A DNA stretch of 64,000 nucleotides from positions 21,773,068-21,837,067 of the forward strand of contig OZ316891.1 in NCBI GenBank assembly GCA_973895155.1, read 5' to 3'. The translations under genes were made by a program, and so were the position numbers. Source of the DNA: Marsupella aquatica (lineage: Eukaryota; Plantae; Marchantiophyta). The notes below the pieces were generated by a model, which had not been told where the DNA came from, ran no database searches, and saw only the letters and a list, made by a program, of their open reading frames with translations. Below, piece by piece: positions 7,196-48,429 of the stretch; position 1 is the stretch's first letter, and every line of letters starts with the position of its first letter.

Positions 7196-9550
7196 GAGGA
7201 ATATTGCTCTCCTAGTTTTACGTCAGACAACACAAATTATGAAACTATAATGTACTCTACATATTGATTCATCACTTTGCTTCCGACATGTGTTCTAACC
7301 AAGAGCAATGGCATTGATAAATTGTCTTGTAGACGTACATGAATATAATTTGTAAAGTTTTTTATGTGCATCTCATCGTTTTCTGCTGCATGCAATTAAA
7401 TACTGTGGTGGGTTTGCCAAAGTTTCAGTTCATTGTTTTAGCTTGTTGAAAATTATATTCACTATTTATCTTCTTTAGTGGTGGCCTTGTGATACTAAAG
7501 TTTGTTGCCTGGACATGTAGGTCCAAGACAACTTTGACTTCAACACAATAGAGTGAGCAACAGGCGTAGCCGTTGACAGTAAAAGCACAGGTCAGATTTG
7601 GGTATGCACTAAACTATTATTGGGCAACTGCATATAATTAGCCTCTACGTGCCAGAAGTCAGCCCTGTCAATAATGCTAAAGAGTCCATAGATCGAGTCA
7701 CTCAAGGAGAGGTATCTTTGTTGGGACTGTGTATGGATCGAGTATCAATTGCAAGCATTCTTAGCACAAGGCTTGGTTTCTGTGCAAAGACAACTCAGAC
7801 TAGTATATGGACGTACGTAGAGTTTAAGAAATTAATCTAAAAATTTGCTGCTAATTCATAACTAATCAATCGATCATGGCAAGAAGCTGAATATTTAGTC
7901 TGATATATCGAGGGCTTAGTTTGAGGTAAATTAAAAATGACTAGATCAAATATTTTGGGCCAGATTCTGGGCCTTCTAAGATCTAGGAATTGATCTCAGT
8001 CAGTAAGGGTCGATAATGTATATATTGGCATATATGTGATTGAGTAGAGTAGAGTAGAGTAGAGAGGTCGGGGGGACGACTACCTGTGTCACAACATGAA
8101 CTCATTTGTCCAACTTGCACGTCTTGGTCTAATTTAACATTCACACTCTCACAGTCTGCAGTCTACCCGGCTGTCTACTCAGTTCAGTGTACAAGAATCA
8201 AGTGCCTTAGTTTCATTACGATGCTACATGTCGATAATATGCTTGTCAGAGTGTATGCTTGGCTGTGCAAACAGACCCATTCAAACAATTAATGCAGCAA
8301 ACTGTTGTTGCTTACTGTTGGCAGCCATGTGGAAGATAGTAGCTTAGAGCAACACTCAACAATAGAGTTTCCAAGCACGCGGTAGGAAGACTAAATTTTG
8401 GTTGTATGTTTTCATTTGGTTCTACAAATCTCACATGCTTTTGATCAGATTGTCTTTTTTTCCCTTCAGAAGTGGTTGTTCTTTAAATTAGTGTTCCTTT
8501 GTCACCTCCGCCCTTGCTATTTGGGTGGATTGACTCATTTGTTGATCATGCCTCTCAGTATTGAGTCGTGTTCTTGTAACTCTTTGTGATTGGTAAGAGT
8601 TTTAATGCTCAACTTTTGGTTTTGTTCCTTTGTGTGGTGCAGTATGCTGCGTAAAGGCGTGGAAGGCCAGGACTATTCTCACATGCTGTGTGAAGGCCAG
8701 GACTATTCTCAGTGGTAAGTGCTGCTACATGATTATACTGTTGGACATCCTTAAGTCTCTATCGTTGTTTTGGAGCCTTTGTTAATTGGAAACTTCTTGT
8801 TATGGCATATCTGTTTGAATATATACCCTTTGATATTGGCTTTGTGAGCACATGATGAAGTGTGATCTTGGATGTGTTTGGCAGTCTAGGAAGGTGGATC
8901 GCGCTACCCCTTCTCATCTCAATAACTGGCCTAAACGTGGCATATATCCCTTTTTCTAATCCCCATCAGCGCGGAGTTGTTGAGGCTTGAGCTGGTCTGA
9001 GCAGGGTTGCTGAGCTAACTTGAAGTGCACTTGATCATAGGTAACCTGCCCTCAATCTCTGTAGTCCAGAGTGTGCTGAAGATTGCCATAGCAAGATTTG
9101 TCCTATTGTGCTTGACTATTCCTAAAGGTCATTTTATGTTCATTAACAATAACCAAAGTCTAAACTTGGAGGTCACAACTAAAAGTTTATGGAGGATTGT
9201 AATATCCCCTTCTTCCCACAATCCTAACTCAATCCATGAATCCTTCAAGTAAGTTGTTACGGACTATACACCTTATCAAAGAAATCATCCCTGAGGCCAG
9301 CAGCTAAGTCGTTACGGCCAGTGCATTTCCTGAATCCGTTCCATGTTGTGGAGTCCCAATAAAATCACTCCACTCCTAAGTCAGCTATCATTCCAGCAAT
9401 CCCACTTTATGAAATGGATTGCATTTTATCCCTACCAGCTCAAACCATGATGTGCAATTCAACTGTCTCTCACATCGTGTCCCCTTGGCCTCTCTGTGGT
9501 CAACTGAGCTAGCCTTCCTTTGAGGCAATACATTTATCAATTGCTGCATG

Positions 9551-10438
9551 AACCATGGCTTGTGCTGCGAAGCAAGTGACCTCGATTATCCTCCCAGTCG
9601 GCCCTGTCTCTGAAATAGATTTCCATGATTTCATATAGCACAAACCATGGTTTGCACATCTTTATGTTAAGTCTAATTCCACCACTCTGACCTCAACTCA
9701 CCTTCCTTTGAGGCATTACATTTTCCAAACCTGGTGCCTTGTACCTATCGTGGCACAAACCATGGTTCGTGCTGTGAAGGGGTAATATGTGACTCCCACT
9801 ATCACAACTCACATCTGGACTTGGCTGTCCTTCCAGCCAACAATTTTCTAGCAAATGGATTTACATTTGTACTTGCAGCACAAACAAGGATTTGCACATC
9901 ATGCATGTCCACCCAGTCCAATTTCTAATCTTAATGAAGCTCAATTTTGCTTTCAAGGGCATGAACCATGGTTTGCTCTGAAGTTTATCTTCCTAGTCAA
10001 TTTTTCTAGACCTTGTTGCACAAAGGGACCTATTGATATCCGAGCCTTATTACTTCATGTTCATTTTGATTGTTAGTGTTGCCATTCATTTAAGGTGAAA
10101 GTCATATCATTTGCAGTGCAAACCATGGTTTGCACTACTGAGAATAAGTATCACAAGCCCTCATTGCACGAATCTTGGTTTGCAGTGTCCCCATTGATTT
10201 GTCCTGAAGTTCATTCCCTGTAACCATTTGCAGAGCAAACCATGGTTTGCAGTACAAAGAATAAATACCAGTCACAGCTAGCTATCTTGCACGAACCTTG
10301 GTTTGCACTGTCCCAGTAGTCTTTGATTCAATTCATTTAGATTCAAAGCTAAATATTATTCCATGAACCTTTGTTTGCACTATCCCTAGTCATCTTTGAT
10401 TTCATCTAGATTTAGAGCTTGCAGCATGAACCATGGTT
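9551..10438. promoter_or_regulatory. Cluster of palindromic AACCATGGTT motifs upstream of ParB-like gene 1
   Basis: Core at 9643, 9758, 9964, 10121, 10238 and 10429, with variants at 9551, ~9884, ~10171, 10294 and ~10365. A 22-bp perfect palindrome AGTGCAAACCATGGTTTGCACT lies at 10115-10136. The regulatory role is inferred. Confidence 0.6.
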
Positions 10439-10635
10439 TGATGATCTACATTTTGCCAGAATCCAAACTACTCTATGCTGTCCCTGGGAGAAAATTAAGT
10501 CAAACATTTCAAAATATCTGGTTTCTTTGAACATTCAACATGTTCTTTAAAGAATATCCTTGACACATCTTGCCGACAGTATTCTTATGATCAAATTTGT
10601 TTTTGTTGTGAAGCAGAGCGAGAACGCACATAGTC

Positions 10636-13600
10636 ATGGCATCCGAAGGAGAAACTAGCAAGAAGAAGCGGAAGTCTTTGGAAAAAACTGATGGAAGCCC
10701 AAAAAAAAGGAAAGCGAAAGTTAGAAAGGGTGTCACAGGAGTGAATTCCATCACTAATTTTTGTGGGAGGAAGATGACATTGAAATCCACCATCACCGAT
10801 ACTGTTGTCCGAGTTGAACAGAAAGATATGAAGCACTGGGGAGTGGTGCTTGATAAGAATGTTCTTCGGATGTGCGTCGCTTCTGAAGAGGGGACTTTGG
10901 TATTGTCAGACTCTCGAATTCTCAGTTGTGTTTATGAGAAAAATGTCAACCTGAAAGACTGTCAAGAGGCTTTGGTCCTTCTGGTCGAGGAGGATACCGT
11001 CGATGAATCACAAAACAATAGGATTTGCTATTGTTTCTCCATAGAGGTATTTGGGATGTTTGACCAAACATACATTGAGGCAAATTGTAGATTATCTCCG
11101 GAGGCATTCTCAACCATTTTGGATCCCACATTCCCAAAGGTTTCTACACTCATAAATGGCCCAAGCATTGAGAGGTACATGTTATCCATCTTGGCATGGG
11201 CAAAATGCACCTTCCCGGAAACATTTCGTGTTGGAAAGAAGGAGGAACTTGAGAAGCAATCCAAGTTTGAAACAGGAGAACTTCCAAAAGTGATCACTGG
11301 AGAAAACATTGGAGATCTTTGCAAGAGTTTCAATGGTGTTTATAAAAAAGCAAACATCTTTGATAGTAGAGTTTTCAATGTTGAAAATTTGAAATGCCAC
11401 ATTGCACCCAATGTTGTAAAATGTAGAGGACATGACCCTGATTACTCAAGGGACCTTGCCAACTCGATGAAATTTCAGTCGTTGGTAAATTTTGAGAAGC
11501 GGGTTTGTTTCCTCATCCCAGTGCTTTGGGATGAGAGCAGGAGCACTGAAGTTGGCTATTGTGGGACTCCATTGTCACACCCACCGATCCTTGATCAAAT
11601 TGACAATTATCATTTTTGGATAATTGGAGGCCAGCACACAGTAATAGCTTACCGATTACTTTTGAATGATGAATCAGTGGATGCTGCTATTCATCAAAAA
11701 TGCCTTACAATTGATGCCGTGATGTTTTGGGCACCATATGATTTGGCTGGGAACCTGGTAATGATGGGATTATCAAAGACATTGAATCATGTCCATCACA
11801 CAGCGATGGATGAATCCCAATTTTTCTTGATTGCAAGACAGGTCAGAGATATTTGGAAAAGTTATGGATGTCCTCCTTCAGAGACAAACAGCACCAAAGA
11901 TTCAAAATGGAAGGTAAGAGTCATATATTTCATAAGTTTATTTTTATTCTTGTTTAACTTCTGCTAGTGCATCTGAATGCAATAGAATGTGAAAAGTATA
12001 ACAGTGTGAACCATGGTTCGTATCCACCTAATGATTTTAGTTGTGTGTGAACAACACTTCTCAAAAGCAGCAATGATCGTCATCCCTTGGGCTAAAGAGG
12101 AGAATGGAAAATTTAATTTGGGTGAACTTGGACCTTTCATCTTAAATATGATAGATTCCACCTTCAACTTGTGGATGAAAGTTTACGAGATGTCAAGAGA
12201 AGGAAAATTGGTTGCTTTCAATGGGTTCTTACAGAGAGATGTTATTAAGAAAGATTCTGCTCAAGGAGCTTGGGAGGTGGCACGAAGAACATTTCGGGAT
12301 TTTCTTGGTGTTGAAGATGCAGTGTTGATGAAGATTGCAAGGTATCTTCTTACCAATAAGAAGATCTCACTAATGAAGCAACGAAGTAGCGGAATTGCAA
12401 AGAAGATAGATGCAGTTCCTATCGAAGAAGATTTCATTGCTCTTGATGAGTATTGCGTTCAAAAGAAGCAGGATAAGGAGTTTGAGATACTGCTTTTGAA
12501 ATATCTTGCAAAAGATAATATGCCTAAGGGGAAACTACGAGCGTTGCCCATGGAGCAGAGAATCGAGAAGGTGAATGCAATGCGAGCTTTTTTTAAGCTT
12601 ACTCCAGATAAAGTTGAAAAACTTTGAACTACGCTTGGACCTGCAGTAATCCCAAAATCATTAACGAAGAACACTGGAAATGACGAGTTGCAAAATCTTT
12701 TGCCTGGAGTTTTTAAGAGTTTGATATGGTCAATCAGGGCTTCAGTGGATGGAAAAGGTAATCCGGTGGTTGTGAAACTTGACCCAAAACTTAGGTTTTG
12801 TTCAAATGAGGGATTTGGAACTCCTGCATTTTTTTGTCCAATCATCTTGGAATTGAAAGAAATGGCAACATTCATATTCTTGGATGCTACCATGATACCT
12901 GGAATAAGTCCCATGACACGGAAGACATATGAAGCATTCTTTGATGCAGCTTCTATGATTGGGTCCAAACCATCTCATGTCGTGGTAGTGATATCATCTG
13001 CGATCGACTCTTTCTTTGTGATGAGTGCCATTTCAGCACACCCACATTATGTTGCATTCACAACACAATACTGGACACAATCTCGACCGTCATCTTCTAC
13101 ATCGACAATTTATGATGTCAATTGTCTTTTTGTAACTTATGCATTCTTCAAAGTGTCATTCACTGAAGAATGTGAGGCAGATGAGATTTCTGGAAAAATT
13201 TTGTTAAGCTTTAAGAAAGCAGGATGTTTGAAGAATTATGAAGAGACAACAGAAGATGTTGCAGAGCAGACTCAGTTTGGGGAGAAAAGCAAGAGTTTCT
13301 ATGATAACTTGACTTCTCAACTTGTCTCATTTGACAAGTTTTCTGTCTGTTTTGGAGATGGCCGACATCTGATCCACTCCCTTTTGGTATGAGTTTTTAA
13401 ACCCCAAACCTTACAGTTGAAAGTTCATTTAATTATTCAACTATATTGAAATCCCAAGTATTAAAACTCAGTCTCATGGTTTTGCAGAACTTGGGAGCTC
13501 GGGTACGTTCATATTGTGACGAGTCTAATCACGAAGGACTTACGCAGTTCTTTTCTTCCACAAACAAGTTTAATCATGATCAGCCTGAAGAAGCATCATG

Positions 13601-16600
13601 TGAACTTCGAAGTATTTTAGAGAAAAATATTGCCAGATTGATGAAGTATAATTTGGCCAAGAAGAATATGAGAGAGGACATTATTGAGCTTTGCAAAGAT
13701 ACCTTACACCTTGGTGAAAGTAGTATTGCTCGTGTGATCAAGGAATATGGATTGGGCAACATTCCTGAATCAGATGACAAAGTCTACGAAATGCCAACCA
13801 ATGTTCCTACTGATCCACTTGGAGGTTAATATGACTACCATTTGTTATAAACTACCATATTCAATAGCTAATGATGAATTAAGTAGCCAAACTTGTCATA
13901 TGCCAGATATGAATCATGAATTATAAATCGATGTTCTCAAGAGAATGATGTACATGATTTGATATAGAATGATTGATTGATGAAAATATTAGAATGAACC
14001 ATGGTTGGAACAAGTTGGATGTGTGAAGTTAGATAAATTTATCAAGACAATATAGAACCTATTATTTGGTATAGTCCAAACATTTCAAATGGATAATAAT
14101 TCCAACTAGAGTTGAAGCAAATACTAATACGAACTGAACAACCCAATCATAGTTTTAACTTGTCAAATGAATCGCTTAAATTCTATAAATAGATTAACTT
14201 ACTCTGGAATTTTGTGAAAAATTAGATTAGTACTTAACATAATATAGAAAACACTTGTCTAATACATCATGTAGTCATTGAAATTAGGCAAAGCAAACTA
14301 ATAGCGATATTTAATAAATAAAAATAATTAGAAGTTTATTGGTTCACCATATTTATCTATTGTTTGTTGTTTTGGTTGTAGGAGATGAAACCAATTCTAT
14401 TGAGGACGAGAACAAGGATGAGGACGAAGAGGATAACATTGATTCCCCGAATGCTTGGCAGCCACTAAAGTTGGATCACGTGGAATCACCAAATGATTCA
14501 ATGGAAATTCTTGACTCGTTCAGGGCTTTCCAAACCGAACCAGAGCTCAATGTCGAGGAACAAGGAGTTTCAATGACCAAAGGAAGATGCCCTACCTCAA
14601 ATCTAAATGCAAAGAATGTTAAAAATATCCAATCAAATTGTAGCCGTGCTGGGGTGCAAGAATCAAATCAAAGAAACAAAAATGAAGTGGCATTTGATGA
14701 AACCAAAAGTAAAAATGAGCGAAGAATGATTGTCCGCAAATTTGTGTGGGAAAATTATATTCCTGATCAGGAAACCAGTTGCCCAGATCACATTTCTACA
14801 ATAGATTGGGATGAGTTCTTTCGAAGCGAAGCTCAATTTCATGGGTGGAAAGCAAGAGCATATTGGCATGAAGCTTTGACTCATCGCTCCGGTTTGGAAA
14901 CCCCTGAACAAATCACTAATTTACAAGATAATGTCTATTATGCAACAGAAGTATGTGAAATGGTTGGAGATCCTCCTATTGATGTTTTTGCCATTCAAAG
15001 TGAACCTAAAAGCACTATTAACAAATGGACTTGGATGAAGGAGTATCAACTAATCTCCAACCCTATCACTAACTCTATAGATACACCCGTGTCTAATCTT
15101 AATGATGCTACACTAGATACATGTGCAGTTTATCAAAGTGATTATGAACAAGCAATCATCCAAGATTTGGGTGTGAAGAGAGATGATTCTTTCATTCCAA
15201 ACGAGGAAACAATAAGAGACAATGCTTTGGTCGTGAATCCAATGGTGGAGCAGATGGATCCTTTACTGGTTGAAACTAACATTTTGGGCACGTCTCCCAT
15301 ATCGACAGAGCAAGTAAATGTTGATGGTGATCCAGTGGAGAAGAAAATGGATCCTTCAATGGTTGAAACTAACATTTTGGACGTGCCTCCCACATCGACA
15401 GAGTCAAGAAATGCTAACAACAACCTAGCAAGGGAGCAGATGGATCCTCTAGTGGTTGAGACTAACATTTTGGATGTGCGTCCCACATCAACAGAGCCAA
15501 TAAATGCTAACAATAACCTAGCAAGGGAGCAGATGGATCCTCTAGTGGTTGAGGCTAATATTTTGGATGAGCCTTTCACATTGACAAAGCCAAGAAATGT
15601 TGACAGCAACCTAGCAAGGGAGCAAATGGATCCTCTAGAGACAAGAAATGTTGAAATCAATGCACAAGTGGATCCTGTTATGATTTTGGCCGAAAAACCA
15701 AAGGTGTCTCACACATCGATGGACCCTAAAACAAATGAGAGTGATTTGTTGGTAGATAGTGAAGAACATCCTTGGATCCAACAAGCCACTAACCTTGAAG
15801 ATCAAGACATACCGGAGGTGGGAAAAATTGCGCCTTGGGAAGAGGAAGCATCTGCTGCAGCCTACGCTGATGGATTGAATGAATTACCACCTCCTTTTTT
15901 GGGGATCCCATTAGTTTCAACTTCTCATGGAGATTGTTCACAAACGACTCCGGCAACAAGAATGGAGCTTCCTAAGACTGGTTCCAAGGTCATTCCAGGT
16001 CGTGCCACTCGACGGGATTCAAAGAGACCCTCGGTGATAGAAAAAGTTACTATGCTGCCAAAGGTGAAGAAGACACCTCAGCAGATTTTGCGCAACAAGA
16101 AGTAATGATTTTATTTTGACTATACTTAAAATGTATAATGTTTTTCATAGTGCTATAAATTGTTTGATTGTTTAGGTGCAATCTGAGCCCAAACCAGCAA
16201 ATTGGTCATAATGGTTGTGAATAGTGTATAGTATCAAGGAAACTTACCCATTATGGTTGCAAAAGTCATTGCAACAAGATAAGAGGGAACACTTCCAAAT
16301 ATGGATCAATACTCAGTATATTCGTGATCATGGAGATAGAAATCATTCAAGGAGATTCCATGTGTTTAATAATCAGGGTACATTTTGGACTACTTATCAC
16401 ACTTATTTGTAGAATGAACCATGGTGCATAGTTAATTTATGACATATTTTTGGGTACTATTCTAAATCTCATCTGTGTGTGTTGTGTACAGGTGAGAGTT
16501 GAAAAATTATTCAGGAAATTACTTGTCATAAGTATCAACAAGTTCCTCATTTACACAACTGGGGTCTCTCGTCATTTGAAGAAGACATCATCTTTCCGAG

Positions 16601-17034
16601 TTTATAACAAAATGATCTTTCCGAGACCATATGTACAAGAATTTCTTGAATTTTGCACTTCAACTTTTGATGTGGTTCTTTGGGCACTCACTGACACATG
16701 CAAACTGGCTGATCAAATGGATCCAATACTCACAGATAAAGCTTTGAGTTTTTCTGGTCTTAAGTATCTTACATCAACTTTGATGGACATGAAACAGATC
16801 AATGATATTTATCCACAATATCAAAGACAAAATGTTATATTTTTAGAGTGTTATCCATCATTTGATAGTGTAAATCCAATGTATTCAAGGCTGTATCCCA
16901 AGCCGTATTATGGTAATTGTAAAGACAATTTTCTTAGAGGCACACTTATTCCATATTTACATAATCTAGAAGATTCTGGTCAGACAGCGCATAAGTTTAT
17001 TAAATATCACTATCCTACTTGGTCTGAAGTATGA
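10636..17034 (+). pseudogene. Multi-exon ParB/Srx-like + MTase-like + acidic/repeat + FCP1-like gene (locus 1), with at least one nonsense lesion
   Basis: Exons approx 10636-11913, ~12040-13386 (acceptor/phase unresolved), 13488-13824, 14381-~16100 and 16492-17034. ParB-like HFWIIGGQHT. In-frame TGA at 12625-12627, where the paralogue has Arg. FCP1/NIF-like PRPYVQEFLEFC...FDVVLW. Colinear with the 28674-21967 gene and shares intron positions with it. Confidence 0.7.
15240..15645 (+). repeat. Coding tandem repeat of ~87-99 bp (EQMDPLVVETNILD... units)
   Basis: About 4.5 units visible in the ORF 14339..16105 translation. Confidence 0.85.
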
Positions 17035-18287
17035 GACAGTATCAATAGAAATGTAGTAAAAGAAACCACAGCTTGTGTGGTGTAGTGTTTAGAATATATT
17101 CAAATGTATTCTTTTTGGATAATAAAAGTTACATTATTTACGTGAAAAATTGAAATGATTGATTACTGCATTATATATTCATGAATGATTACTTGTAATG
17201 TTCATTTTACTTCATAATGTCGAATGCCAAAATGTCTACTTGTAGAGCAAAAATTCTATTCTTGAACTCAGTTTTGGCAGCACCCGATAATACTTGTAAA
17301 TTCAGTCTTTATATTCATAGTGTCTGATGCGAAAATAGATACACATAGTATAAAACTTGTCATTTTGTAGAGATCTACTAGTGTTAAATGCAAAAAATTT
17401 GGCTTAAGTTTCTTTTAGGCCCTTGGAACTTATTGAGTATTATAGCCAATATTAATTCTCAAATTCAGTAGATACCAATTTAAATGAAAACTTTTTGTTT
17501 ACTCACTATCAGTGTATTGCATTGAATATGCATTTCACCAACAAATTAGAATACGAACCATGGTTTATTGTATGTTTTGACACTTAATTTGGTTTACTTC
17601 TTTTTTTGTTTGGGGAGGGGGGGGGAATAAAACCCGCAAAAACCCATGGGAAGGGGGGCCCAACAGGGCAACAAAGACAGAGGCAGCAAAATGCAAACCT
17701 ATGAGATGGAGAGAGAGCCCCAATGAGCAAGGACAAAAAAAGATGCGGTCCATGCAAGCAAGGAAAGACACAATCCAAAAGAAAAGTGTCCAAGCGTGTG
17801 ACCCACCTAAGATGTTCCTGACTAACTAATTCTTTTACTCTAAGTAATCTAGTATGTTTTCTACCAAGACCCGAGGCTTTGCAGAGGCCATGCAAAGAGT
17901 CTAACATTTATGAAAGGAGTAGATTCAAGTTAAACACTCAATTTGGTTTACTTTGTTTAAATTGTTCCTATCACATGTGACTGAACTTGGATCCATCAGG
18001 TTTTTGTTGATGTCCTGGAGCATACCATACTTTCAAACTAGAGGAAAAGAGTTAATACAATGGGGGAAAATGGAAGTCTTGGACACTTCCCCCTTATATA
18101 TGGCCCGTGGTGGTTTAAATTTATTTATTTATTTATTTAAATGAATTAAATAAATCAGTAATATCTTTGTAAAACTTCATTTAAGCATTTATGGAATTGA
18201 AAATTCCACTTTTATCTAAATAAGGGTTGAGTGTTGTCAACCTACATACGTTGAGTTATTGTTGGGGTACTCATAATGTATTTATCG

Positions 18288-18552
18288 CTCGGGGGTTTCA
18301 CTTCCACAAAAATGGCATATCACGTGCGACGAAGTATAGGGTCATTTTATTGGTTCAAAGGGAAGACTTAAGAATTTTCTGAGAAGAACAATAGAGTTTT
18401 TTAAATCAAATTTTGATACTTATAAGAACATTAGTATCCTTATAATCAAAATTTAACTTTATAGGGGTTGATTTTTTTTTTAAAATTCTTACATTTGAGG
18501 GGGTCCAAGGCCTAAAATGATGAGGAGGCATCCATATAGTGAGACCCCCGAG
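18288..18552. mobile_element. MITE family M, copy 1 (TIR CTCGGGGGTYTCAC, 8-bp TSD)
   Basis: Starts ctcgggggtttcac and ends gtgagacccccgag. Flanks are ATTTATCG / ATTTATCA. Homologous to 39322-39603 and 42626-42922. Confidence 0.9.
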
Positions 18553-18559
18553 ATTTATC

Positions 18560-19250
18560 AGATGTTGTCAAATTGGAGGCATCCAGGTGTAATGCTATGG
18601 CGTCCGTGGATCTATTGGCGGATAATGTGCATCCCCGTGTGCATCGCAACCATCAAATTTCCCCATTTGAGGATGGTATACATCCCACTTGTACGTGACG
18701 GGGTATTGTTGGGCTATTTTGACGTATGTGCTCCAATTGCTTTTGTGCAGGTGTAGGTTGTGGTGTTAGTGGATCTATTGGCAGATGATGTGCATCTCAA
18801 CCATCCAATTTCCCTCCGTGAGGATGGTGAGCATCCTACTTGTGAGGGGGTATTGCTAGAGTATCCTGACGGATGTGCTCCAATTGCTTTTGTGTAGGTG
18901 TAGGTTGTGGCGTCTGTGGATCTATTGGCGGATGATGTGCATCACAGCCATCCAATTTCCCCCGGTGAGGATGGTCTACATCCCACTTGTGAGGGGGTCT
19001 TGCTGGAGTATTCTGACGCTATTTGCCAAATGTGGTCCAATTGGAGGCGTGCAGGTGTATGCTATGGCGTTCGTGGATCTATTGGCGAATGATGTGCATC
19101 AAAGGCATCTGATTTCCCCCCGTGAGGATGGTGTACATCCCACTTGTGAGGGGGTATTGCTGGGGTATTCTGATGGTATTTGCCAGATGTGTGCCAATTG
19201 GAGGCATCCAGGTGTCCACGGTGTGGCATCCGTGGATCTTGTGTGCAGGT
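18560..19250. repeat. Tandem repeat of ~147-163 bp, about 4.5 units
   Basis: gtggatctattggc...gaggatggt..catcccacttgt recurs near 18607, 18769, 18916, 19073 and 19232. Confidence 0.85.
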
Positions 19251-20041
19251 ATTTTTAAGGTATTTTGGAGTTGTAGTGTTATTGGAGGCATACATGGGAG
19301 GTGGATCCATGGAAAAATTCATGGGGTACTTGGGGTTACTTCATTCAAATTGACAGACATAAAGATTTGACAATGTTTGATTATTTAGGAGTCACAAAAC
19401 TAGACATATATAATCCCCAAGCCCCTTCACTAGACAAGCTTCTAGGTATCTAACTACCTCAGTCTTCACCAACATTCTGTACAACATTCTTGGGGAAGAT
19501 CCTTTGCTTGCCTTTGGAACCGGTAGATCTCTAATGATTACTCTGTTCTGCTCTAGAGCCCACCTGACCACCATGTCTAATAACTCAAACGCAATCTTCT
19601 AGAGCGTGTTTGGTGAAAGGGTTGCCCAGGGAAGTCTTCGATCACTTGTTTGTATCTCCAACAAACATGCGCAGCTTGGCGTCCACTTCGCATGTCTTCA
19701 TCAATCCCATGGCTCTCATGCAGACCACTAAATTGGCGTCTTTAGTGAGACAGTGTGTCAAAGTCCTGCAAAAGTTTCAGAAAGATAGGGTGGATGTTTA
19801 AAAGCACAACAACGGCCCTCACATCCGAAAAAAACTTACACAGCATATGATGTTGAACAGGATTTTTATATATGTCACGTAATGCGGCTGATTGAACTAT
19901 GTATTTACTATGTTTGAGTCTTCAGCAACGTGTAATTTGCCACTTAATCTGCTCCTGGTTGGGCACGCATGGAACTTCTACCTGGTTTTCCTGAATATAT
20001 ATAAAATGGCCGGGCAGATCATGAAACCCCAAGACCATTAT

Positions 20042-20110
20042 AACCCCAATTTAAGGAAAACCAAACTTTGGAAATTCCGAAAATAACTAAATATTATTAT
20101 TTTAATAAAA
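20042..20110 (+). repeat. Putative left TIR of the giant Sola-like element, preceded by TTAT (20038-20041)
   Basis: AACCCCAATTTAAGGAA...AATTCC...CTAAATATTAT..TTAAT aligns over ~70 bp with 39957-40028. Confidence 0.7.
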
Positions 20111-20309
20111 AAGGGGCGACATGACGCGTGGCTGCGCGTGAAACCCTGAAAATGACTGCAACGTCACATTTTAACCAATCCAACTTGACGGGACCAAGAG
20201 ACATGCTCACGCGAATAATAGTAATAGAGAAATAAATCTTTGAGATCCTTTATATATGATAATCAGTATATAAGGAGTTTACAAATGGTTTCTAGAACGA
20301 CAATACAAA

Positions 20310-21067
20310 TTAATTTGATCTCATGCCGACTATTATTTTGGAAGCGTCCAAAATTGGGCGTCTGTTAAATTGCTCTACTAGATATCTATCTCCATGCCTC
20401 AAAATCACAGGGTCTTCCCATAGAGTATGATTATAATCATAATCTCTAAAAATATATTTAACTGACCAATTAGGATAATCTCTTCCATTGGCAATGACAA
20501 GCGGCTCACAAGAGTTTGCTAGCTTGCTAAGATACGGAATCAGCAAGTTAATCAGGAAACTGTCGTCGACCGACCCAAAATATTTGGGCGGAAATAATGA
20601 TCCAACAACAGGATCTAAACAAGCATGAAATGCATCGGATTCGATAAGCATTATATTTTGCTACAGATATGCCTTCGTATAAATTCCAACCTTCTCAAAA
20701 CACTTCAAAAATATCCGCTTATTTGATGTCACCCCATCGCATAAGTAACAATGAGACTGATCCCAAATATACTTAAATGAGGCCATTTCCATCGCAGTAA
20801 AAATAGATGCTAAAATTTGATCTAAAAGGTTCTTCCCAAGAGAGGACCAGATCCCTACATCGAAATTCTCAAAACAAAATCTCAAGAATTCATGAAGATG
20901 AGGCCTTGGAAAAACGTATATATTCCCATCTGAATTCCAGTTGAGACCGCCATCAGTCGGGAATGCGGTGCAGTGTAATAGAGTATATGCTCCATGTCTA
21001 AAACTATGAGCCCAGGCATTTTCTTTGCTGCAATGAATCTCCTGTAGAGAAACACAAGAAGATGCAT
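20310..21067 (-). pseudogene. FCP1/NIF-like HAD phosphatase domain, unit 3 (frameshift and stop)
   Basis: LIVLDMEHIL, PRPHLHEFLRFCFENFDVGIWSS, IWDQSHC, DDSFLINLLIPYL; TAG at 20661-20663. Confidence 0.75.
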
Positions 21068-21127
21068 GAGCCCGTATGGATGTAGTCACGCGAATGGTCG
21101 CGTCACATATTACAGAGACAACATCCT

Positions 21128-21835
21128 CTACACTCTGGCCATTGATAAGTGACGTCTGTTGAAGTGCTTGATAAGAACTTGATTCGCATGTCTCTGCACG
21201 TACAGATTCTCCCATATATCCTCGTTCAGATCCCAATCTCGATGTAGATTTCTAATCGACCAGATGGGATAATCAAACTTGTTAGCAAACGCAAGACAAA
21301 GCCCTGAATTTGATAGCTTTTGTAAATATGGAATGAGGTCATCCCTCAAAAAGACATCATCCAACGATCATTGAAACGACTTAGCGAACAATAATCCGCA
21401 TACAGCTGTCTGGCATGTATGGGAAGGATAGGCATCAATTTGGATTATATTCTCTGGTTGATAATCTTGAAACATATCATGTAGTCTCTCGATAGATTTG
21501 AAGACAACAGTCTTATAATTTTTCTTCACATAACCAAGATTCCAACAATGATCCTACGTGAACACATATATCAACTGCGACAGGTCGGTGCTCGACAACA
21601 CTTCTGAAAGTATCTAATAAACCAGTTTATCATTGAGAATAGACCAGACCATCACATCAAAATGATCATAACAGAATTTTATAAGATCATGAAGATGCGG
21701 CTTCGGAACGACACATAGAGATCTGATACGAATTCCGGGTGTTGACTTGAGCTGAGGAGTATATTTTGAAACAGAGCACAGGAAGTTTGCCAGTCCTAAA
21801 ACCAGAAGTTGACGCGACCTGCTCCACTTAGACAC
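21128..21835 (-). pseudogene. FCP1/NIF-like HAD phosphatase domain, unit 2 (degenerate)
   Basis: LLVLGLANFL, PKPHLHDLIKFCYDHFDVMVWS, DDVFLRDDLIPYLQKL; internal stops. Confidence 0.7.
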
Positions 21836-21966
21836 CTATAAATGAACAATTCGATTCTCATATTATGCAATTGCAAACAACCACGCGATCGGGCGCGTCA
21901 CTCCCAAAATATAAAGTTCAATTTCAATCAATTTATAAATAATAATTGATAATAAACAATAAATGT

Positions 21967-22737
21967 TTACTTATTGGACTTATCCCGGGCTTCTATAGCA
22001 TGGTCTTTTTCGGCAGATAAGTATTTCATAAATTTGTCAAACTTTTCTAAATGGTCTTTATTCCCCTGATTACGAATGATCACATTTCTCCTCCAAAGAT
22101 TTGTCTTATCAATATAATCTTTCTCAAGATTTTCTTGAGAGAACGTTGGAATCCCATATCCACTAAGGAGCTCGCGGAATGTCAACTTGTCAATTGACAT
22201 GTCGCATAGATATGTATATAGTTTCTTTCTAAAAAATAGGTCATCATCGAGCCCAGAATATGCATCGGGATACAGCGATGAATAGAAGTCATTAAGGCTC
22301 GTCTTATATGCAGCATCATCGATAAGAATGACATTCTCGATGTTGTAATCTTTAATATTGGCGGCAATGTTGGAGAGACATTTGACAAATAAGGGGATGT
22401 CATTATTATTCTTCCCAATAAGTCGAGTTGATTCTTGTCCCCATATAAATTTAATACGTTTCAAAACTTCGGGTCGAAGTATCAGCCTTACACAAGATAG
22501 AATATTTCGTTTGAACATGCACGACCAGATCGCAATGTCGTATAGATCTACCACCTTCTCAAGAAATTCCATTAAATCAGGCCTTGGATAGATAACCTTG
22601 TGCATCTGTCTCACACCCCTTGACCGAATGGGCATCCCAGGGCTGATCTTCTCTGACCAGATAAGTACCCGATTCAGATCAAAAATTACAAGTCTCTTTT
22701 GAACCGGTGACTTCTTTGCCGATGGATTAGGCGCCAT
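21967..22737 (-). CDS. FCP1/NIF-like HAD phosphatase domain, unit 1 (terminal exon)
   Basis: RLVIFDLNRVL, PRPDLMEFL, DIAIWS, FIWGQE, ENVILIDDAAYK. Confidence 0.85.
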   Translation of the reverse strand: MAPNPSAKKSPVQKRLVIFDLNRVLIWSEKISPGMPIRSRGVRQMHKVIYPRPDLMEFLEKVVDLYDIAIWSCMFKRNILSCVRLILRPEVLKRIKFIWGQESTRLIGKNNNDIPLFVKCLSNIAANIKDYNIENVILIDDAAYKTSLNDFYSSLYPDAYSGLDDDLFFRKKLYTYLCDMSIDKLTFRELLSGYGIPTFSQENLEKDYIDKTNLWRRNVIIRNQGNKDHLEKFDKFMKYLSAEKDHAIEARDKSNK

Positions 22738-22958
22738 CCGTACCTGTGATTTTTGTGCCGCAGGGTTTGGAGAACGTACTAGAACGGTCTATTTGTTTCC
22801 CGCCTCCGGACGATCACCGGACTTCCGGACTGGTGCCTTCGATACTCGATCAGGGGGTTTCGGGATAGGCTTCTGTAAAACATTAAGAAATGAAAATAAG
22901 TTTATAACGTGAACGGTCGCATGACTACAAAGGAAGACACTAAAATGAAGTGTATTAC

Positions 22959-23748
22959 CTGTACAAGACGGTTGTTCAGTGCTGGAATTCCGCCGGAAAT
23001 GTCAATCATAGCAGCACGGATCCCGGTAACTAGGTTACTTGCGGATGTTGGCTTGCGGAAGTCCATGTCAAATAACGACAAGACTATCTCCCTACGAAAT
23101 TTCTCAATTTGATCCAAGGAAAAATTAATTCTGTTTCCTTGACACAAGCACTTGGCGTATCTCAAGATAAACACACCACAACTGTGGCCGTCACTCTGGT
23201 GAGGAATATCATTCCGATATATCCGTTCCCAACCTGAGAGATCCAAGTTGACACCAGTTCTCCAGCCAATTTTGTCGGCGTAGTACTTCCCAACAATATC
23301 TAGCACCCCAGGATTTTGTTGATTATGAACTAGAGAATCTAGGTACCCGAGCCGTTTCTCCTTCGGATACACAACTACCAATGACCAATGTTCTTTCACA
23401 GCATTGTGTACTGAAAAGACCAGTTTGTCGTATTCACTGATTTTTAGCGGAAACTCCTTTGTCCAAGCTGCTCTCTCCTCATCGAAAATGGTAGGATCCA
23501 TGGAGAGAAGCTCAAAATGGTGTGTTTGGAAGAATTTGACAAGGTCTGACTTTCCAACTCTATCGAGAATCAGTTTGAGAAAACTCAAATAAGCGTTAAT
23601 TATATCATCGGTGAGCAACTCGCGCGGTCTTAGACACATCATATGTTTCCTCTTGATCGAGTGTTGTAAGAACTTGGTCAATAGCTCTTCCATATCCTTA
23701 GAAGGATCAAGGCATTGATCTATTCGACTAGCCAAATTTTCAAAAAAC
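22959..23748 (-). CDS. Ulp1/peptidase C48 (SUMO protease) exon
   Basis: LTDDIINAYL, EHWSLVVV (His), YLDSL (Asp), HQSDGHSCGVF (Gln/Cys): the catalytic triad is intact. Confidence 0.9.
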
Positions 23749-24559
23749 TGTAAAAAACAGAGATTTCAGTACGCCTTCAAATAACGTACTGAGGTTGTAG
23801 CCTAAGGGTTCTACCTCAAAAAACAGAAACAATAACAAATCAATAATAAAATAATGACGTCTATAATAGAAACTTTAAGCTTATAGCTTGCGAATGACCT
23901 TTGGATTGGGTGGATCCGGCCTTTTTGCAGCTGATCTCTTGGGTGCCTCAATCGCAACAACATCCTTCAGCCCTCCTCGAGACCGCAGTGATCGCTCCAC
24001 CGGACCAGTTTGCGAAGGTTGGAGCGATGAGGCGGGAAGACCTTCAAATGGTTGTGGCATTTGATTCAAATATTCCACAATCTGGGAATCCGATTCCAAA
24101 ATATCCGGTGCCACAATTTCTGCGCGAGTGACCTGTGCAATATATCAGGGTCAAGACCACGAACCCGGTCGTGTCAAGTCAGCTGTTAGTATCTTAACGA
24201 CTTGAGCCGAGTCTGGTGCCAAAGACGTTCCCAGGTCTTGCACTCGATTCTCAAAAAAGCGGACATTATTGATGATTGTCTCCATTCTGGATGTGCAGTG
24301 GTAGTCTTCTCCTCGGTAATCAAAAGACCCTTCCAATATTGCAAAGCAAGGACTGCCTGGACTCGGAGCTGCTCCGGTGAATATTTATTCCAATCATCCA
24401 ATGAGACCGTACTTAAGGGTGGATCGTTAAATTCAAACTCCGGGCGAAGAAAATAGTCTAATATTTTCTTCTTAACTGCAACTGAGGGTGAAGAAGGCTC
24501 CTTCAAATTTAGCTTTATTTTTGGTAGATGTTGTGCCTCAGGAATAAGCGAAAGATCCT

Positions 24560-25205
24560 TAGCCCTCTCGGCCTCCTTCCTCGCTGCCTCCAGTCTTGCG
24601 GCTTCTTCTCTCTCCAGTCTTGCGGAATTGACCTTTTCCGCCTCCAACTTCTCCGCCTCCACCCTCTTCGGTCTTGCGGTCTCGTCCGCCATCCTCTCGG
24701 CCAGCAGCCTCTCAGCCGCCACACTCTCCGCCTTGGCCCTATTTGCCTCTGTCACTAAAAGGACTCTCGTAGCCTCCGCTTTCTCAGCCTGGGCTTTCTT
24801 CGCCTCCGCTTTCTCAGCCTCGGCTTTCTCAGCCTCGGCTTTCTTTGCCTGGGCTTTCTCAGCCTGGGCTTTCTCAGCCTGGGCTTTCTCAGCCTGGGCT
24901 TTCTCAGCCTCGGCATTCTCAGCCTCGGCTTTCTCCTTCTTCTTTGCGGCAGTTGCTTTTCTAGCTACCGCCTTTTTCTTCTTAGCCTCCTTCTTTTGAA
25001 GCTCCTCTTGTCGGGCCGCCTCTTGTCGGGCCGCCTCTTGTCGGGATGCCTCCTCTTGTCGGGCCGCCTCCTGCCGGGCCTCCTCCTGTCGGGCCGCCTC
25101 CTCCTGCCGGGCCGCCTCTTTTTTTTGAAGCTCCTCTTGCCGGGCCGCCTCCTGCCGGGCCTCCTCCAGCCGGGCCTCCTCCTCCTACCGGGCCGCCTCC
25201 TCTCG
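24560..25205 (-). repeat. Coding low-complexity repeats (AEKAQ/AEKAE 15-mers; EEAARQ units)
   Basis: ttctcagcctgggct and cctcctgccgggccg repeats. Confidence 0.85.
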
Positions 25206-28200
25206 GTCCACCTCATGTCGAGGCTCATGTGTGGCCTCTTCATCAGAGTCTCAGCGTCCTCAGAACCCTCCATCTCCTCGTCCTCTTCATCAGCATCCTC
25301 AGCGTCCTTCATCTCCTCTCCGTCACTCTCTTCATCTCCTCTATTATCGGAATCTCCGACGTCGTTCTGCGTATCGGTCATCCACTCTAGATCTTGGTCA
25401 TTGACATCCCCATCCGCGTCACCTTCCGTGTCACCTTCCCCCTCACCATCCGCATCACCATTGCTCCCTGCATCCTCAACATTGAAGCCGCAGTCGACTT
25501 GATCTTAATAAAATCAGATCATTTGATAAGAATGACTCACGCGCATATTCGCGTGAAAAGAAATGTTAAGAATGTCCACGCGCATGTTCGCATGATGCAA
25601 TAAAAAGTAAGAGGTTTCAAAAGTAACCTATCTTGGATTGGCCCACTAGGGTACTCCGTTGGTCGAATGTACAATCGATCGGAATCTTCAGAGAGTGCAT
25701 ACTCTTGCAATAATTGATTACAAATATTATCAGGGATATGTTGTTCGTGGAGGACATCCAAAACATCAGCCCTGAGAGCAGTTACGGATGGACGGTACTT
25801 CATTAATTTATCTATACATTTTTCTATACTAGCCCGTACTGGGTCAATCAATGACAGCGTTGTATCAATTGTCACCGTGGTGTGTTGCAAGAAACAAGAC
25901 AACTCCCTATGCATTGCCACAAGGCAGTAATATTTTACATTGGATCCAGCATCCTGTAAAAAAAGCCAAAATTAGTTCACAATATTAATTGAGAATATAA
26001 TAATCTAAATAATCTTAAAATCGAAACCCCAAAATATAAATCTCAAAACTTACCATCAAGCACTGGATCAAGTTCGTTCCCTCACCGAAGCATAGAGCCC
26101 ATTCCCCACATTGGACGAATTGACTAACAATACTTTCAAAGAATGGAAGTATCTTTTCTGGGGAAGGTGTCGTGAACTCGCCGCTCTCTTCAAGATTGGC
26201 TATCTTCTCAATCCGATATTTGGAGACCAATTGGAACTCGAGGGCTTGTGGATCGCCCATTGTGTTGAAGGCCAAGCTGTGAAAAGCGTAGGTTACAATA
26301 AGCTTCTTCTCCTTCGGCCGCTTCTAAATATAATGGCTATCGACAGCAACGTAGTGTGTGTACTTCCCTAATTCCCATTTGATTAAGTAAGACTCAATGG
26401 GAGAGGCTACAATAATAACCACATGGTGTGGTTTTGCCCCTATCTCGCTAGTAGCACGAAATAACCCCTCATAGAATGAGCAATTTGGCGCACGCAAATC
26501 TCCCATTGATGAGGGATCAAAATAAATCAAGCTCGCAAGGTTCTTGTCTTCACGTATGATACAATCCGCAAACCCAGCATTTTGTATATCCTACAGGGAT
26601 CGCAATTTCAGCCTCTCACCAACCGGCCGCACTAGTTGGTTTCCTTGACTATCAACTGATTTATGTATTCCTTCCACCAACCTGTAGAATATCGGGTCGA
26701 TCTCTTTCAACAAATTATCATTATTAATATTTACATTTAAGCACTTCTTCAGATAACCACTCAACGCATCTCTCAACTGCTTCAACACCATCTTGTCGAG
26801 CTTAAAGCGATCAATCATTCCTTTGACCCGCAATTTCCGCGCTGAATCTGTCAGACTTTTCAGCTCCGTCCGGGTGGATGTATTCCCGTTGAGTTTACTC
26901 AATAATAAAATCTCAAACTCAACTTTCGTCTTCTTCTTTATACATAATTGCTCCAAACTCATGCTAGTCGTTGACAACATTGGAGCCTCAGAGGACTTCC
27001 TCGCCTTCCCAGATTTCACTTTGATGCTTTGGTTTTTGAGTATAGACAGTCTTCCGCTCAACATATATTCTGTTGCCTTTCGAAGAACCGAGTTTGAGCA
27101 CCCTTGACAAGAATGGAACGTCTTCTTCAGAAAGATGATAAGCACATGGATTATCCGCAATTTTGACGGCGTCCCTCTGTAAAATTCCGTTGTAAATTAC
27201 AAGCTCTCCTGTCCTTGATAGTTTGTAGACCTCCATCCACTTCTTGAATGTTTTGTCCTCCATGTAAAGAGAAACAGAGCCAATTCTCCAAATTTCATCA
27301 TTTCGTTCATCCCCATTTGAGCCCATGGGCAAACAAAACTCTAGCTCTCATAAATACCTGAAAAACAATGGAAACATGACAATTCTAAGATTGACGCGAC
27401 CGTTCGCATGAGAAAAATTCTAAGCTTGACGCGACCGTTCGCGTGACAAAAGTTTAAATGATAATGTGATCGAAGAGGATTATTTATATACCTTCCAATT
27501 TGGATGATGATAATGTGATCCAGGCCGCCCAAATGAGTTCCAGATATTACGACACTGTTGTACAATGGTGAGAAACTGTCCTTCCATTGATGTTTGATGA
27601 CAGTGGTTCAGAGCTTTCGATAATCCCATCAAATGAACATTATTGTCGTTGTTGAGCGTTGCCCAAAACATTACAGCTTCTACAGTACCGCAAGCGTCTC
27701 GTACAACTTGGCTGACTTTGTCGTCCTCTTTCAATCAGCAATTTGTACGCCATTATTGTGTGCTGGCCTCCGAGTATCCAAAAATGACTGGTCATAATGT
27801 CCTCCTCCTTTGGCGCCGAATCGTAGGGCGCCCCATTGTAGTCAAGATCTCTGTCGGCCTCCGACTGAACCCACTTCACAGGGACTAAAAAGCAGCATCG
27901 CTTTTCAAACTTTATAGTCGAATGAGAGAGGAGTGAATTCTTTAGCCTACCTGTGTAATCATGATTCCACTCTCGGCACTTGATATGGTCCGGTGCAAGA
28001 TGACAACGTGATGTCTCAACAAAAAATGACTTGCTGTTAAATATATTCACAGCACTATATTCTTTGAGGAAAGAATCGAATAGAGCCCCGACATTCGCTG
28101 AGGTAATTACTTTCGGAAGATTCTTCGCCGAGTATACTTTAACCTTGGTCACTGGCGGGGCCTTTCCCAAGCGAAATCCCTGGTTGAAAGGAACTCTCTA

Positions 28201-28749
28201 GAACTCAAGTACGTCAATAATGTATTGACAAATCAAATCTCCCGTTGATCCCTCTGGATCGGAAGGATATCCCACACTAGTAACCTTTTCCAAGGCGTGC
28301 CTTGCATCTAGAAGATCATCGATTTTGGACTGATTGAAGGTTACGTATTGCGTTTGATCCAAACAAATGCTTATTTTGTCCTCTTGCTGGTCGTCGCTAA
28401 CTAGCAGAACCAATCCCTCTGTACACTCTTTAACTTTCATGTTCTTCTCAAAGAAACACCCAAGAATTTGTGATCTCTCCAAAACTGTAGCTTTATCATT
28501 TTTTGCCACCACAAGACGGACAACCTCATTGCGAACAACTATTCCAAAATCGGATATCTCAGTCGATTCAAAGAGATGGATACTCTTTGTCTCCGTTGTT
28601 CTCTCTCTGATTGACTTTCCTCGATATGCTTTAGATGAATCTCTTTTCCGCTTTGAAGTTCCGGTAGGATCCATTCTGAAATAGACAAATATTGAAAGTT
28701 AAACGTTTATTATAAAATACTAACACGCGCATGGTCGCGTCGTGCCGAA

Positions 28750-29220
28750 TTACATTTTAGGAACGTTTATCTTGACCCAATCTTCTCGCTCATCTTCATC
28801 TAACCAAAACCAAAGGTTCCTAAATGTGTCAAGTTTAGATCCTTCAAATCCACCCAGAATGTCCAGTGGCGGGAGAGTTCTGATGGATTCTGTAAATCTG
28901 AATGCTACACTCCGTGAAGGCAAATGCCTTTGAAGCGATTCATATCCTGGTCTATCAGTGAAGTCGTAAGCTACCAAGGTGACCGTCGCCCAAGTACTAC
29001 TATAAGTAACTATGTGGCACCACTCCTTACTAACTGTTCGAATGGCGATCAAGTCCATGACCCGATTTTTAATCGCATTATCCGAAGACAGTGGAAAAAC
29101 TCTTTGACTAATGGCCAAATATATTTCTCGACAATATCGTCCGGAAGACCGGGTATCAGGTCTTCAGCTTGACTCCATATCATGTTTTGGTTCATAACCT
29201 TTGCACGTGCAATGCGCTCC
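28750..29220 (-). pseudogene. F-box-like ORF 1 (frameshifted)
   Basis: IPGLPDDIVEKYIWP upstream, then DLIAIRTVSKEWCHIV. Confidence 0.55.
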
Positions 29221-29468
29221 ATCATCATTTGATGATGAGATTTCGATTCATGTCAAAGGACTGCAACATAATATGGAAAATATTAAGAACAAGAACCTAT
29301 CCATTAAGAACTGGGACCACCTAGATTCTGAGAAAATCTACCAAACCTTTTGATTAGAACATCTCGTTCTTCCTCATCTAAATAGTTATATTTGTTCGTA
29401 AACAATAAGATTTTGTCAGAAGTAGTAGTCCCAAGAACAAATATTTCTGGAAGCATAGAAATATCTTG

Positions 29469-29870
29469 TCAAATAACTCGACAGATTGAGTCAAACTCCA
29501 ACTCGTCAGTTTCAGGTATGTAGTAAAGTGCTTCATTTGCGTCATCGACAATCCGGTTTGCTTGTTTGAGGATAGCCCATAACCTTGTATTTGTAACTAA
29601 AAAGTTCCACTTCTTGCTACAAGCTCCAAGCTGAATAAGGTCTCGGACCCTATCGATAACCAAATCGTTATCGGGGTGTCGATATCGACGCAATCCTTCA
29701 ATTGAAATAAAGTGTTTGTAGAGTATTGGCCAAATGTTTGAAATGACCAAAACATCTGGTATTCCTCCAATGAGACTAGAGGAGGTTTCATCCAGCGTAT
29801 CCCATATTGTTTTCTGTTTCCTTTCATGAGATGAAAGGAAATCTCGAGCCTCATTCAAAAGTTGGCTCAT
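29469..29870 (-). CDS. F-box-like ORF 2
   Basis: LIGGIPDVLVISNIWPIL...IQLGACSKKWNFLV. Confidence 0.6.
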   Translation of the reverse strand: MSQLLNEARDFLSSHERKQKTIWDTLDETSSSLIGGIPDVLVISNIWPILYKHFISIEGLRRYRHPDNDLVIDRVRDLIQLGACSKKWNFLVTNTRLWAILKQANRIVDDANEALYYIPETDELEFDSICRVI

Positions 29871-29935
29871 CCTGCTTTTATCATATCACAAAACATTGTT
29901 AGAAGACATATGATGCGCTTGGTCACATAAGTTAA

Positions 29936-48425: not shown

Positions 48426-48429
48426 TAAG

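Follow-up and report, generated by a model that had tools for sequence, protein, structure and literature searches.

In this work we analysed 64,000 nucleotides of the liverwort Marsupella aquatica (assembly GCA_973895155.1, contig OZ316891.1, positions 21,773,068 to 21,837,067), referred to below as the window, which is eukaryotic, transposon-rich DNA with spliceosomal introns. It contains a homologous, convergent pair of spliced genes, gene A on the forward strand and gene B on the reverse strand, whose first exons are predicted to carry a ParB/Srx nucleotide-binding fold and which are each accompanied by a palindrome of their own. Algal transposons are already known from reports to carry ParB–methylase accessory genes, of which the present genes are a land-plant variant; very probably they are parts of transposons and not a host gene pair. 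Judging from the DNA and from the placement of the sites, it is likely that each ParB-fold protein binds the palindromes of its own family. The complete scheme is proposed tentatively; in it A and B would be accessory genes of two related cut-and-paste families, the products of which coat their own element by way of the palindromes and counteract its silencing.

An earlier note on this DNA had taken the pair for a novel family standing on its own. That view is abandoned here, because the genes belong with the ParB–methylase accessory genes of algal transposons, as far as the accessible text of two reports describes them (PMC12477816; bioRxiv 10.1101/2025.02.11.637652). The note had recognised the ParB/Srx fold; the palindromes had escaped it, as had the methylase-like, Ulp1 and NIF domains.

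The gene pair and its predicted ParB/Srx fold

The first exons of A and B are 38% identical in a pairwise alignment, and a tblastn search of A against the window recovered exon 1 of B with an E-value of 1.7e-69 and its exon 2 with 3.6e-48. The colinear blocks listed in the earlier note were found again, VLRMCVA/VVRLVVA, ILSCVYEKN/ILGCFFEKN, CHIAPNVVKCR/CHLAPDHIKCR, FEKRVCFLIPV/FEKRCCFLVPV and HFWIIGGQHT/HFWILGGQHT in the exon-1 alignment, MGLSKTLNH/MGLSKALNH and NGFLQRD/NGILQRD in the tblastn search. So were the common splice donors, which are phase-0 GT sites in both copies: after WK (GTAAGA following 11913 in A, GTATAT following 27492 in B) and after HSLL in A or QCLM in B (GTATGA following 13386, GTAAGT following 26054). 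Among the relatives examined, the donor position is kept in 10/10 after the ParB exon and in 6/6 after the methylase motif. The span formerly given for the pair, 10636 to 28674, indeed has a start codon at either end, from which A extends to 17034 and B to about 20310.

The model of gene A comprises five exons and 1723 codons with one internal stop, and the acceptor of its intron 1 is a non-canonical CAA. We infer that the exons of each gene form one transcript, because of the splice sites and because the annotated fern protein P0034 joins ParB-like, methylase-like and NIF parts.

Pfam gave nothing for exon 1 of A or B, nor, at a useful level, for 17 of 18 homologues. A confident structure model of exon 1 (pLDDT 86.6) and three fold searches support the ParB/Srx fold. 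VIA-align returned ParB/Srx-family entries in all of the top 8 rows (Z 8.3 to 4.8), the best, matched by residues 202-350, being PadC (Z 8.3, rmsd 2.8, 99 residues aligned) and KorB (Z 8.0, rmsd 2.6, 94 aligned); a Z near 8 is modest, yet the rows are mutually consistent. Foldseek ranked Noc and ParB first against the PDB, with E-values above 0.001, and a phage DNA methylase and ParB proteins first against viral models (E 4.7e-4). The fold assignment of the earlier note is thus supported by the model. The N-terminal part of the same model resembles PH domains (Z about 4.5), maybe through a common arrangement only.

In an hhalign comparison the family motif GGQHT is aligned with AGERR of bacterial ParB (score 20.4, against at most 14.7 in 15 controls; E 0.054). 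The earlier reading of this motif needs correction, its type being GQH(T/S) and not the GxxR of CTP-binding ParB. Sulfiredoxins have their catalytic cysteine within GGCHR, and this position is a glutamine in the present family. A conserved helical region follows the ParB domain, in a part for which the exon-2 model is poor (pLDDT 50.8). No helix-turn-helix was detected there, hhalign against 10 bacterial ParB rows having matched the motif only, and no ParA family match was found among 25 scanned frames of the window's 144.

Relatives and selection

A profile built from both exon-1 sequences retrieved 40 proteins at E-values up to 0.001 among 1.84 billion. Three of the 10 clusters looked up carried a species name, which was the liverwort Calypogeia fissa in one case and the fern Adiantum nelumboides in two. 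Annotations of liverwort and fern genomes list family proteins among those of the host, as 'unnamed' or 'hypothetical'; probably they belong to transposons. Metagenome contigs yielded 24 loci, 23 of them plant-like and one a bacterial DUF6551 gene (PF20188, L023:1148-1930), which has the motif variant DGQHT and a long tree branch and serves as a lead for a prokaryotic source. The exon layout is the same in the metagenome loci that are long enough, with NIF exons in several. Two matches within prokaryotic genomes are intron-containing contigs and were regarded as contamination from plants. The record G001, labelled uncultured cyanobacterium, holds four plant-like contigs with introns (L025, L026, L082 and L083), which are likely contamination of that assembly. 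None of 183 pattern matches on viral contigs was confirmed as a relative, and a word-based search found no longer fused proteins, which is weak evidence. In a tree of 34 rows, from which L083 is omitted (motif not recovered), A, B and the Calypogeia fragment belong to one group of seven rows, the support of which is unstarred; this placement points to a bryophyte as the probable host.

The past purifying selection claimed earlier is borne out by the substitution rates. The ratio of nonsynonymous to synonymous rates (dN/dS) in the ParB core was 0.04-0.23 in seven of eight relative pairs; the eighth, near-identical pair gave 1.75 on very few changes. For exon 1 of A against B it was 0.22, with dS near saturation. 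Exon 2 gave 0.13-0.40 in five pairs and was less constrained than the ParB core in all five measured for both.

Family-specific palindromes in non-coding DNA

Each gene is surrounded by its own palindrome (Table 1). Eight of the A-type sites lie upstream (9550-10439), three in introns (12008, 13996 and 16416) and one downstream (17555), and shuffling predicts 1.13 in place of the 12 observed; at two mismatches the window-wide excess is marginal, 24 against 13.4. The B-type palindrome occurs 29 times in the window at up to two mismatches, against 0.54 expected, in two clusters at 19666-31351 and 44592-47200. It is found exactly in 4 of 8 modelled introns of B and with three mismatches in 2 more, as well as in the 5' intron, downstream of the gene and in a tandem array at 30528-31351. 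The second cluster contributes nine sites, situated upstream of a broken DUF7869 transposase gene about 12 kb from B.

Coding DNA contains none of the 12 A sites and none of the 18 B sites, though it makes up 65% and about 81% of the respective spans. Within the genes themselves the counts are 0/3 and 0/7, coding DNA filling 81% and about 90%. P values for this non-coding placement overstate the case, since the data themselves supplied the motifs and the copies within an array depend on one another. An intron acceptor lies at or just 5' of the start codon in L001, L005, L007, L011 and L009 and in the window (10616 and 28676), and therefore an intron of the 5' untranslated region (UTR) may contain the palindrome arrays found upstream.

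Relatives, moss-like contigs among them, have palindromes of their own, with 13 copies in L001, 10 in L005, 16-17 in L007, 13-17 in L011, 7-8 in L025/L026, 5 in L083 and 5-7 in L018. A cross-table of eight relative loci, one transposase contig and three window regions was diagonal except for close kin and one stray match. L005 and L007 keep an identical intronic palindrome though 74% of their synonymous sites differ.

These sites could also belong to the transposase or a host factor, or form RNA hairpins that aid splicing, the ParB-fold protein having an unrelated nucleotide-binding role. The palindromes do surround the transposase gene as well, many are near splice junctions, and no DNA-reading domain was identified. 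We consider this rather improbable all the same. One arm sequence is common to all sites of a family, which a hairpin does not need, and sites also fill the upstream arrays and downstream DNA. Each ParB clade, moreover, has its own motif, and a ParB and inverted-repeat pairing recurs beside another transposase superfamily in red algae. Because the palindrome arms are sequence-identical, a protein reader would be favoured over RNA hairpins, and this reader is presumably the ParB-fold protein and not the transposase.

Probable link to a DUF7869 transposon

DUF7869 we take to be a Sola-like transposase. Downstream of the DUF7869 gene lies a 62-nt end-like motif (39954-40015), which is similar to one downstream of B. 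The DUF7869 unit thus shares both palindrome and end-like motif with B but seems to have its own end, and the two look like separate, related insertions. The same association was seen in the unrelated assembly G001, in which the palindrome core CTCGASTCGAG occurs 17 times, 16 times on three contigs with ParB genes and once on the only contig with a DUF7869 gene. On that contig there are further sites of degenerate sequence, and a similar end-like motif follows the transposase on its 3' side. From this we infer that the host element is a DUF7869/Sola-type transposon. Most likely A and B stem from two element families, each having a palindrome of its own, which inserted next to one another.

Methylase-like, NIF and Ulp1 domains

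The methylase-like half of exon 2 was compared with 25 bacterial PF01555 domains and gave a weak hhalign match at the C-terminal S-adenosylmethionine (SAM) motif, scoring 27-29 against at most 22.9 in 30 block-shuffled controls. Of the catalytic DPPY/SPPY motif the Asp alone is kept in 13/13 aligned family rows, intact frames included (DATM, DPSS, DFRN, DTLA), and FxGxG is degenerate. Pfam gave no match for this region in 15 members and nothing consistent for exon 2, and an Atlas search with the window's own methylase-like stretch gave no usable match. When PDB sequences were searched, the methylase-like part and an alignment both gave chance-level matches only. Fold searches with the exon-2 model were uninformative; no methylase stood out, which excludes nothing in a model of that quality. 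The domain of exons 2 and 3 is probably methylase-like and inactive, as judged from its motifs.

It has been proposed for the algal genes (PMC12477816, as far as its accessible text goes) that such proteins modify their element, and intact copies of the present family might accordingly be active 4mC/6mA methyltransferases that ParB targets to its own element. The beta-class motif order and the C-terminal stretch resembling a SAM motif would agree with this, as would the ten best Atlas matches that have a family, all of which share family or clan with PF01555. The reduction of the catalytic motif to Asp in every row, the degenerate FxGxG and the weaker constraint on exon 2 speak against it, and we regard an active enzyme as very unlikely.

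NIF domains, one in A and three in B, were found with Pfam and tblastn and pass the Pfam cut-off. FCP1/SCP (NIF) phosphatases have a DxDx(T/V) motif. The phosphatase motif DxDxT is missing in 4/4 of these domains, which read SINKF in A and DLNRV, GLANF and DMEHI in B. A Ulp1 domain is present in gene B only (Pfam 65.4 bits, cut-off 20.7), with a complete active site of His, Asp, Gln and Cys (HWSLVV, YLDS and HQSDGHSCG in 22905-23765).

Copy status and decay

The public sequencing runs X1, X3 and X4 were used for depth and majority contigs. Depth over A is flat and like that of its flanks, and the only relatives of A were diverged, at about 82-85% identity. Its stop TGA 12625 reads CGA in X1, X3, X4 and X5, while the CAA acceptor of intron 1 is also found in X1 and X3. 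That A might be intact was rejected, since the acceptor is common to these two runs and all 11 listed exon differences change the protein. A fits a recently dead, drifting single copy.

Depth over B at 96% identity or more is several times that over A in all three runs, from about 19.9 kb onward; in X1 it was 523-1126 for B and 113-175 for A, figures that are not copy numbers. The frame breaks of B at 27341, 27262 and 27131 are missing from the majority contigs of all three runs and that at about 27731 in X3, and where it has stops, at 21616, 21555/6 and 20663, majority contigs show sense codons. Substitutions listed in X1 comprise 47 T>C and 45 A>G against 9 C>T and 6 G>A, an excess expected if the window's copy decayed by deamination of methylated cytosine. 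B is a decayed member of a young multi-copy family. A recent local duplication giving rise to A and B was rejected as well, given the near-saturation of synonymous sites and the difference between the two palindromes.

With regard to these data one may ask whether duplication and decay within a host gene family, or the remains of an integrated virus, could account for A and B, with the palindromes as ordinary regulatory motifs. The depth over A is that of a single copy, its location is the same in samples carrying two organism labels, and phage proteins are among the nearest structural neighbours. B, on the other hand, is multi-copy and young, the palindrome changes from family to family among relatives, the genes are spliced with conserved introns and the neighbourhood is made of transposons. 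Such an origin is highly improbable.

Features of the window

Table 1. Positions of the genes, predicted domains and palindromes in the window
Feature	Position	Strand	Remarks
A-type palindrome RAACCATGGTTY	9550-17566	.	12 sites at up to 1 mismatch; none elsewhere in the window
Gene A	10636-17034	+	ATG at 10636; likely acceptor CAG ending at 10616, just 5' of the ATG
A exon 1	10636-11913	+	Basic N-terminus; PH-like part about 10759-11229; predicted ParB/Srx fold about 11359-11805; motif HFWIIGGQHT
A exon 2	12055-13386	+	Helical region and degenerate beta-class amino-methyltransferase-like domain; TGA at 12625
A exon 3	13488-13824	+	C-terminal part of methylase-like domain
A exon 4	14382-16063	+	Low-complexity linker; 93-bp unit in 4.2 copies at 15247-15638
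A exon 5	16492-17034	+	NIF/FCP1-like domain (PF03031, E 8.5e-10); SINKF instead of DxDxT
End-like motif downstream of B	20039-20097	+	77% like 39954-40015; high depth of B starts in its bin
B-type palindrome SACGCG-N6-CGCGTS	20123-31351	.	18 sites counted around B
Gene B	28674 to ~20310	−	ATG at 28674; about 9 exons, several stops and frame breaks
B exon 1	27492-28674	−	PH-like and predicted ParB/Srx-fold region; in-frame stop 28195-28197; frame break about 27731-27734
B exons 2-3	25632-27358	−	Helical region and methylase-like domain; frame breaks 27341, 27262, 27131; two stops
B low-complexity acidic and coiled-coil exons	23890-25504	−	15-bp repeats; boundaries approximate
B Ulp1/SUMO-protease exon	22959-23750	−	PF02902, E 8.9e-18
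B tandem NIF exons (3)	22743-21967, 21835-21135, 21042-20310	−	Motifs DLNRV, GLANF, DMEHI
Weak F-box-like units (3) upstream of B	28750-30487	−	Below the Pfam cut-off
Broken DUF7869 transposase gene	40774-44210	−	PF25273, E 1.3e-36; interrupted at 42625-42925 by a high-copy element

The F-box-like units have a possible GT donor at their last codon, an AG lies just 5' of the ATG of B (28676), and the phases match. From these sites the units may possibly be the first exons of B, joined to it by a 75-nt intron bearing a palindrome.

Between A and B lies a tandem array of 147-157-bp units (18638-19239). An element of about 270 bp is present at 18287-18555, 39322-39603 and 42625-42925, its first site showing an extreme depth of 14,557-44,570 across the three runs and its third copy interrupting the DUF7869 gene. 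A Gypsy-like long terminal repeat (LTR) retrotransposon occupies 47280-55457, with a truncated, inverted copy that is 96% alike at 33875-37041. It cuts off a tandem array upstream of the DUF7869 unit (46281-47283), the 257-bp unit of which contains two B-type palindromes and is unlike the 80- and 189-bp units of the arrays of B. A 182-codon frame at 45488-46036 on the forward strand was assigned to no family. A CACTA/EnSpm element on the reverse strand (56313-63932; PF02992, PF13952 and PF03004) has no repeated palindrome. At 32240-32910 a long GAGCGA repeat comes after several half-sites of the CGAGCTG type, which are possibly the remains of another element, and telomere-like TAAACCC is found in short runs at 2900-2931 and about 42135-42170.

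Proposed mechanism

We suggest that the ParB-fold protein, as a dimer, would bind the palindromes of its own family and coat its own element. The palindromes would be kept wherever there is non-coding space, and the protein would act on the chromatin of its element, the coating probably allowing transcription of the element to continue in the face of silencing by the host. Having no catalytic motifs, the methylase-like and NIF domains might be binding or scaffold modules, and the Ulp1 domain of B might remove SUMO locally, by analogy with the VANC and Kaonashi proteins of VANDAL transposons. It is because of the analogy with VANC that a function in anti-silencing was preferred to one in transposition.

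In the latter case the protein would bind the palindromes, compact an element of 10-30 kb and bring its ends to the transposase, and silencing would be unaffected. In favour of this are the bridging and compaction of DNA by ParB-family proteins, the giant size of the algal elements, and the position of sites next to the transposase gene and near end-like motifs both in the window and in L082. Against this, the sites are densest in the arrays upstream of the ParB genes and in introns and not at the end-like motif, the presence of Ulp1, NIF and methylase-like domains suggests a role in chromatin or transcription, and the clamp motif is altered. A role in transposition appears unlikely.

Several results weigh against the proposed self-coating of transposons by their accessory proteins. 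First, GxxR is the CTP-binding motif of ParB CTPase clamps, and its arginine is replaced by Thr or Ser in 21/21 rows holding the motif, 10 of which are locus rows fetched with a pattern demanding Thr or Ser and 10 protein matches not so selected; because of this replacement a ParB-like sliding clamp is doubtful. Second, no repeated palindrome was found in L002, L012, L016, L017, L020-L022 and L024, which are short or low in GC, among the 23 plant-like loci, and L009 (87-4225) has instead 15 same-orientation copies of a direct-repeat motif that is not palindromic. Third, palindrome type tracks protein clade, and kin share labels, so that co-evolution does not follow. Fourth, the window yielded no second terminal repeat, no reverse-complement partner of the end-like motif and no target-site duplication, there is no transposase between the end motif of B and its upstream array, and A, single-copy in depth, has none upstream within the window. 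Finally, the methylase match is weak (about 40 columns in hhalign, at E 0.003-0.006 and a probability of only 6-11%), and the Atlas result for the intact homologue L001, PF01555 clusters listed first with a score of 0.78, is a lead only.

More speculative still is the generalisation that bryophyte and fern transposons run a self-recognition code of prokaryotic derivation, similar to ParB/parS, in which every family would place a palindrome of its own, 12-22 bp long, in almost all introns and flanks, and ParB-fold readers with disarmed methylase and phosphatase domains and, optionally, a SUMO protease would coat their own copies alone and hold off silencing from them. If true, this code would constitute a second, independently built anti-silencing system of land plants, and its protein-site pairs would form a natural library.

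Comparison with known systems

Published systems are compared here as described in the accessible text of the reports. Literature searches returned no land-plant report of such genes; Iyer et al. 2011, which the Ectocarpus paper cites for green algae (PMC12477816), Bao et al. 2009 and the algal supplements may bear on novelty. The predicted N-terminal fold, palindromic sites of 12-22 bp and the order of ParB followed by methylase are shared with bacterial ParB, Noc and KorB and with phage ParB-methylase fusions. The genes differ from the bacterial proteins in having GQH(T/S) for GxxR, in being spliced and set in eukaryotic transposons, and in that no helix-turn-helix was detected and no ParA among the frames scanned. 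Eukaryotic adenine methylases have been linked to phage ParB loci (PMC4738411).

A close parallel is Ectocarpus Sola1-1_Ec32, a large DNA transposon of the Sola group with a 1104-aa ParB and N4C/N6A methylase gene proposed to bind and modify its own element (PMC12477816). The order of a ParB-like and then a methylase domain is the same here. The present genes differ in belonging to a land plant, in the loss of the catalytic methylase motif and in their added PH-like, NIF, Ulp1 and possibly F-box-like modules. The likeness is one of domain order as described, and 'palindrom' is absent from the main text of that paper. In the red alga Bostrychia, the ParB-like PAG3 of Plavaka (EnSpm) elements lies beside tandem inverted-repeat arrays and was missed by domain searches (bioRxiv 10.1101/2025.02.11.637652), as a ParB-like accessory protein adjoining such arrays is found here. 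PAG3 is fused to a 2OG oxygenase, its methylase is separate (PAG2) and the transposase superfamily is another one, whereas the sites of the present genes are also within introns and distinct between neighbouring families.

Arabidopsis VANC binds family-specific non-coding motifs in tandem arrays (PMC5735166), VANDAL arrays vary between related elements, and some VANC and Kaonashi proteins carry a Ulp1 domain (PMC13317346). Family-specific non-coding motifs, often in tandem, and a Ulp1 domain in B are features in common. Unlike the present elements, VANDAL is Mutator-like, and long palindromes and a ParB fold are proper to the former, so that VANC is a functional analogue only, with no homology seen.

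Self-binding of ParB-like transposon proteins has been proposed in the algal papers, for PAG3 among others, without a test in the accessible text. The window offers two related proteins with mutually exclusive predicted sites, and the relatives contribute some six further pairs of protein and site. Specific binding, if it occurs, would bear on the way in which giant DNA transposons evade silencing and could supply new sequence-specific DNA readers, and it would mean that a bacterial-type system of site and reader exists inside the transposons of land plants other than flowering plants.

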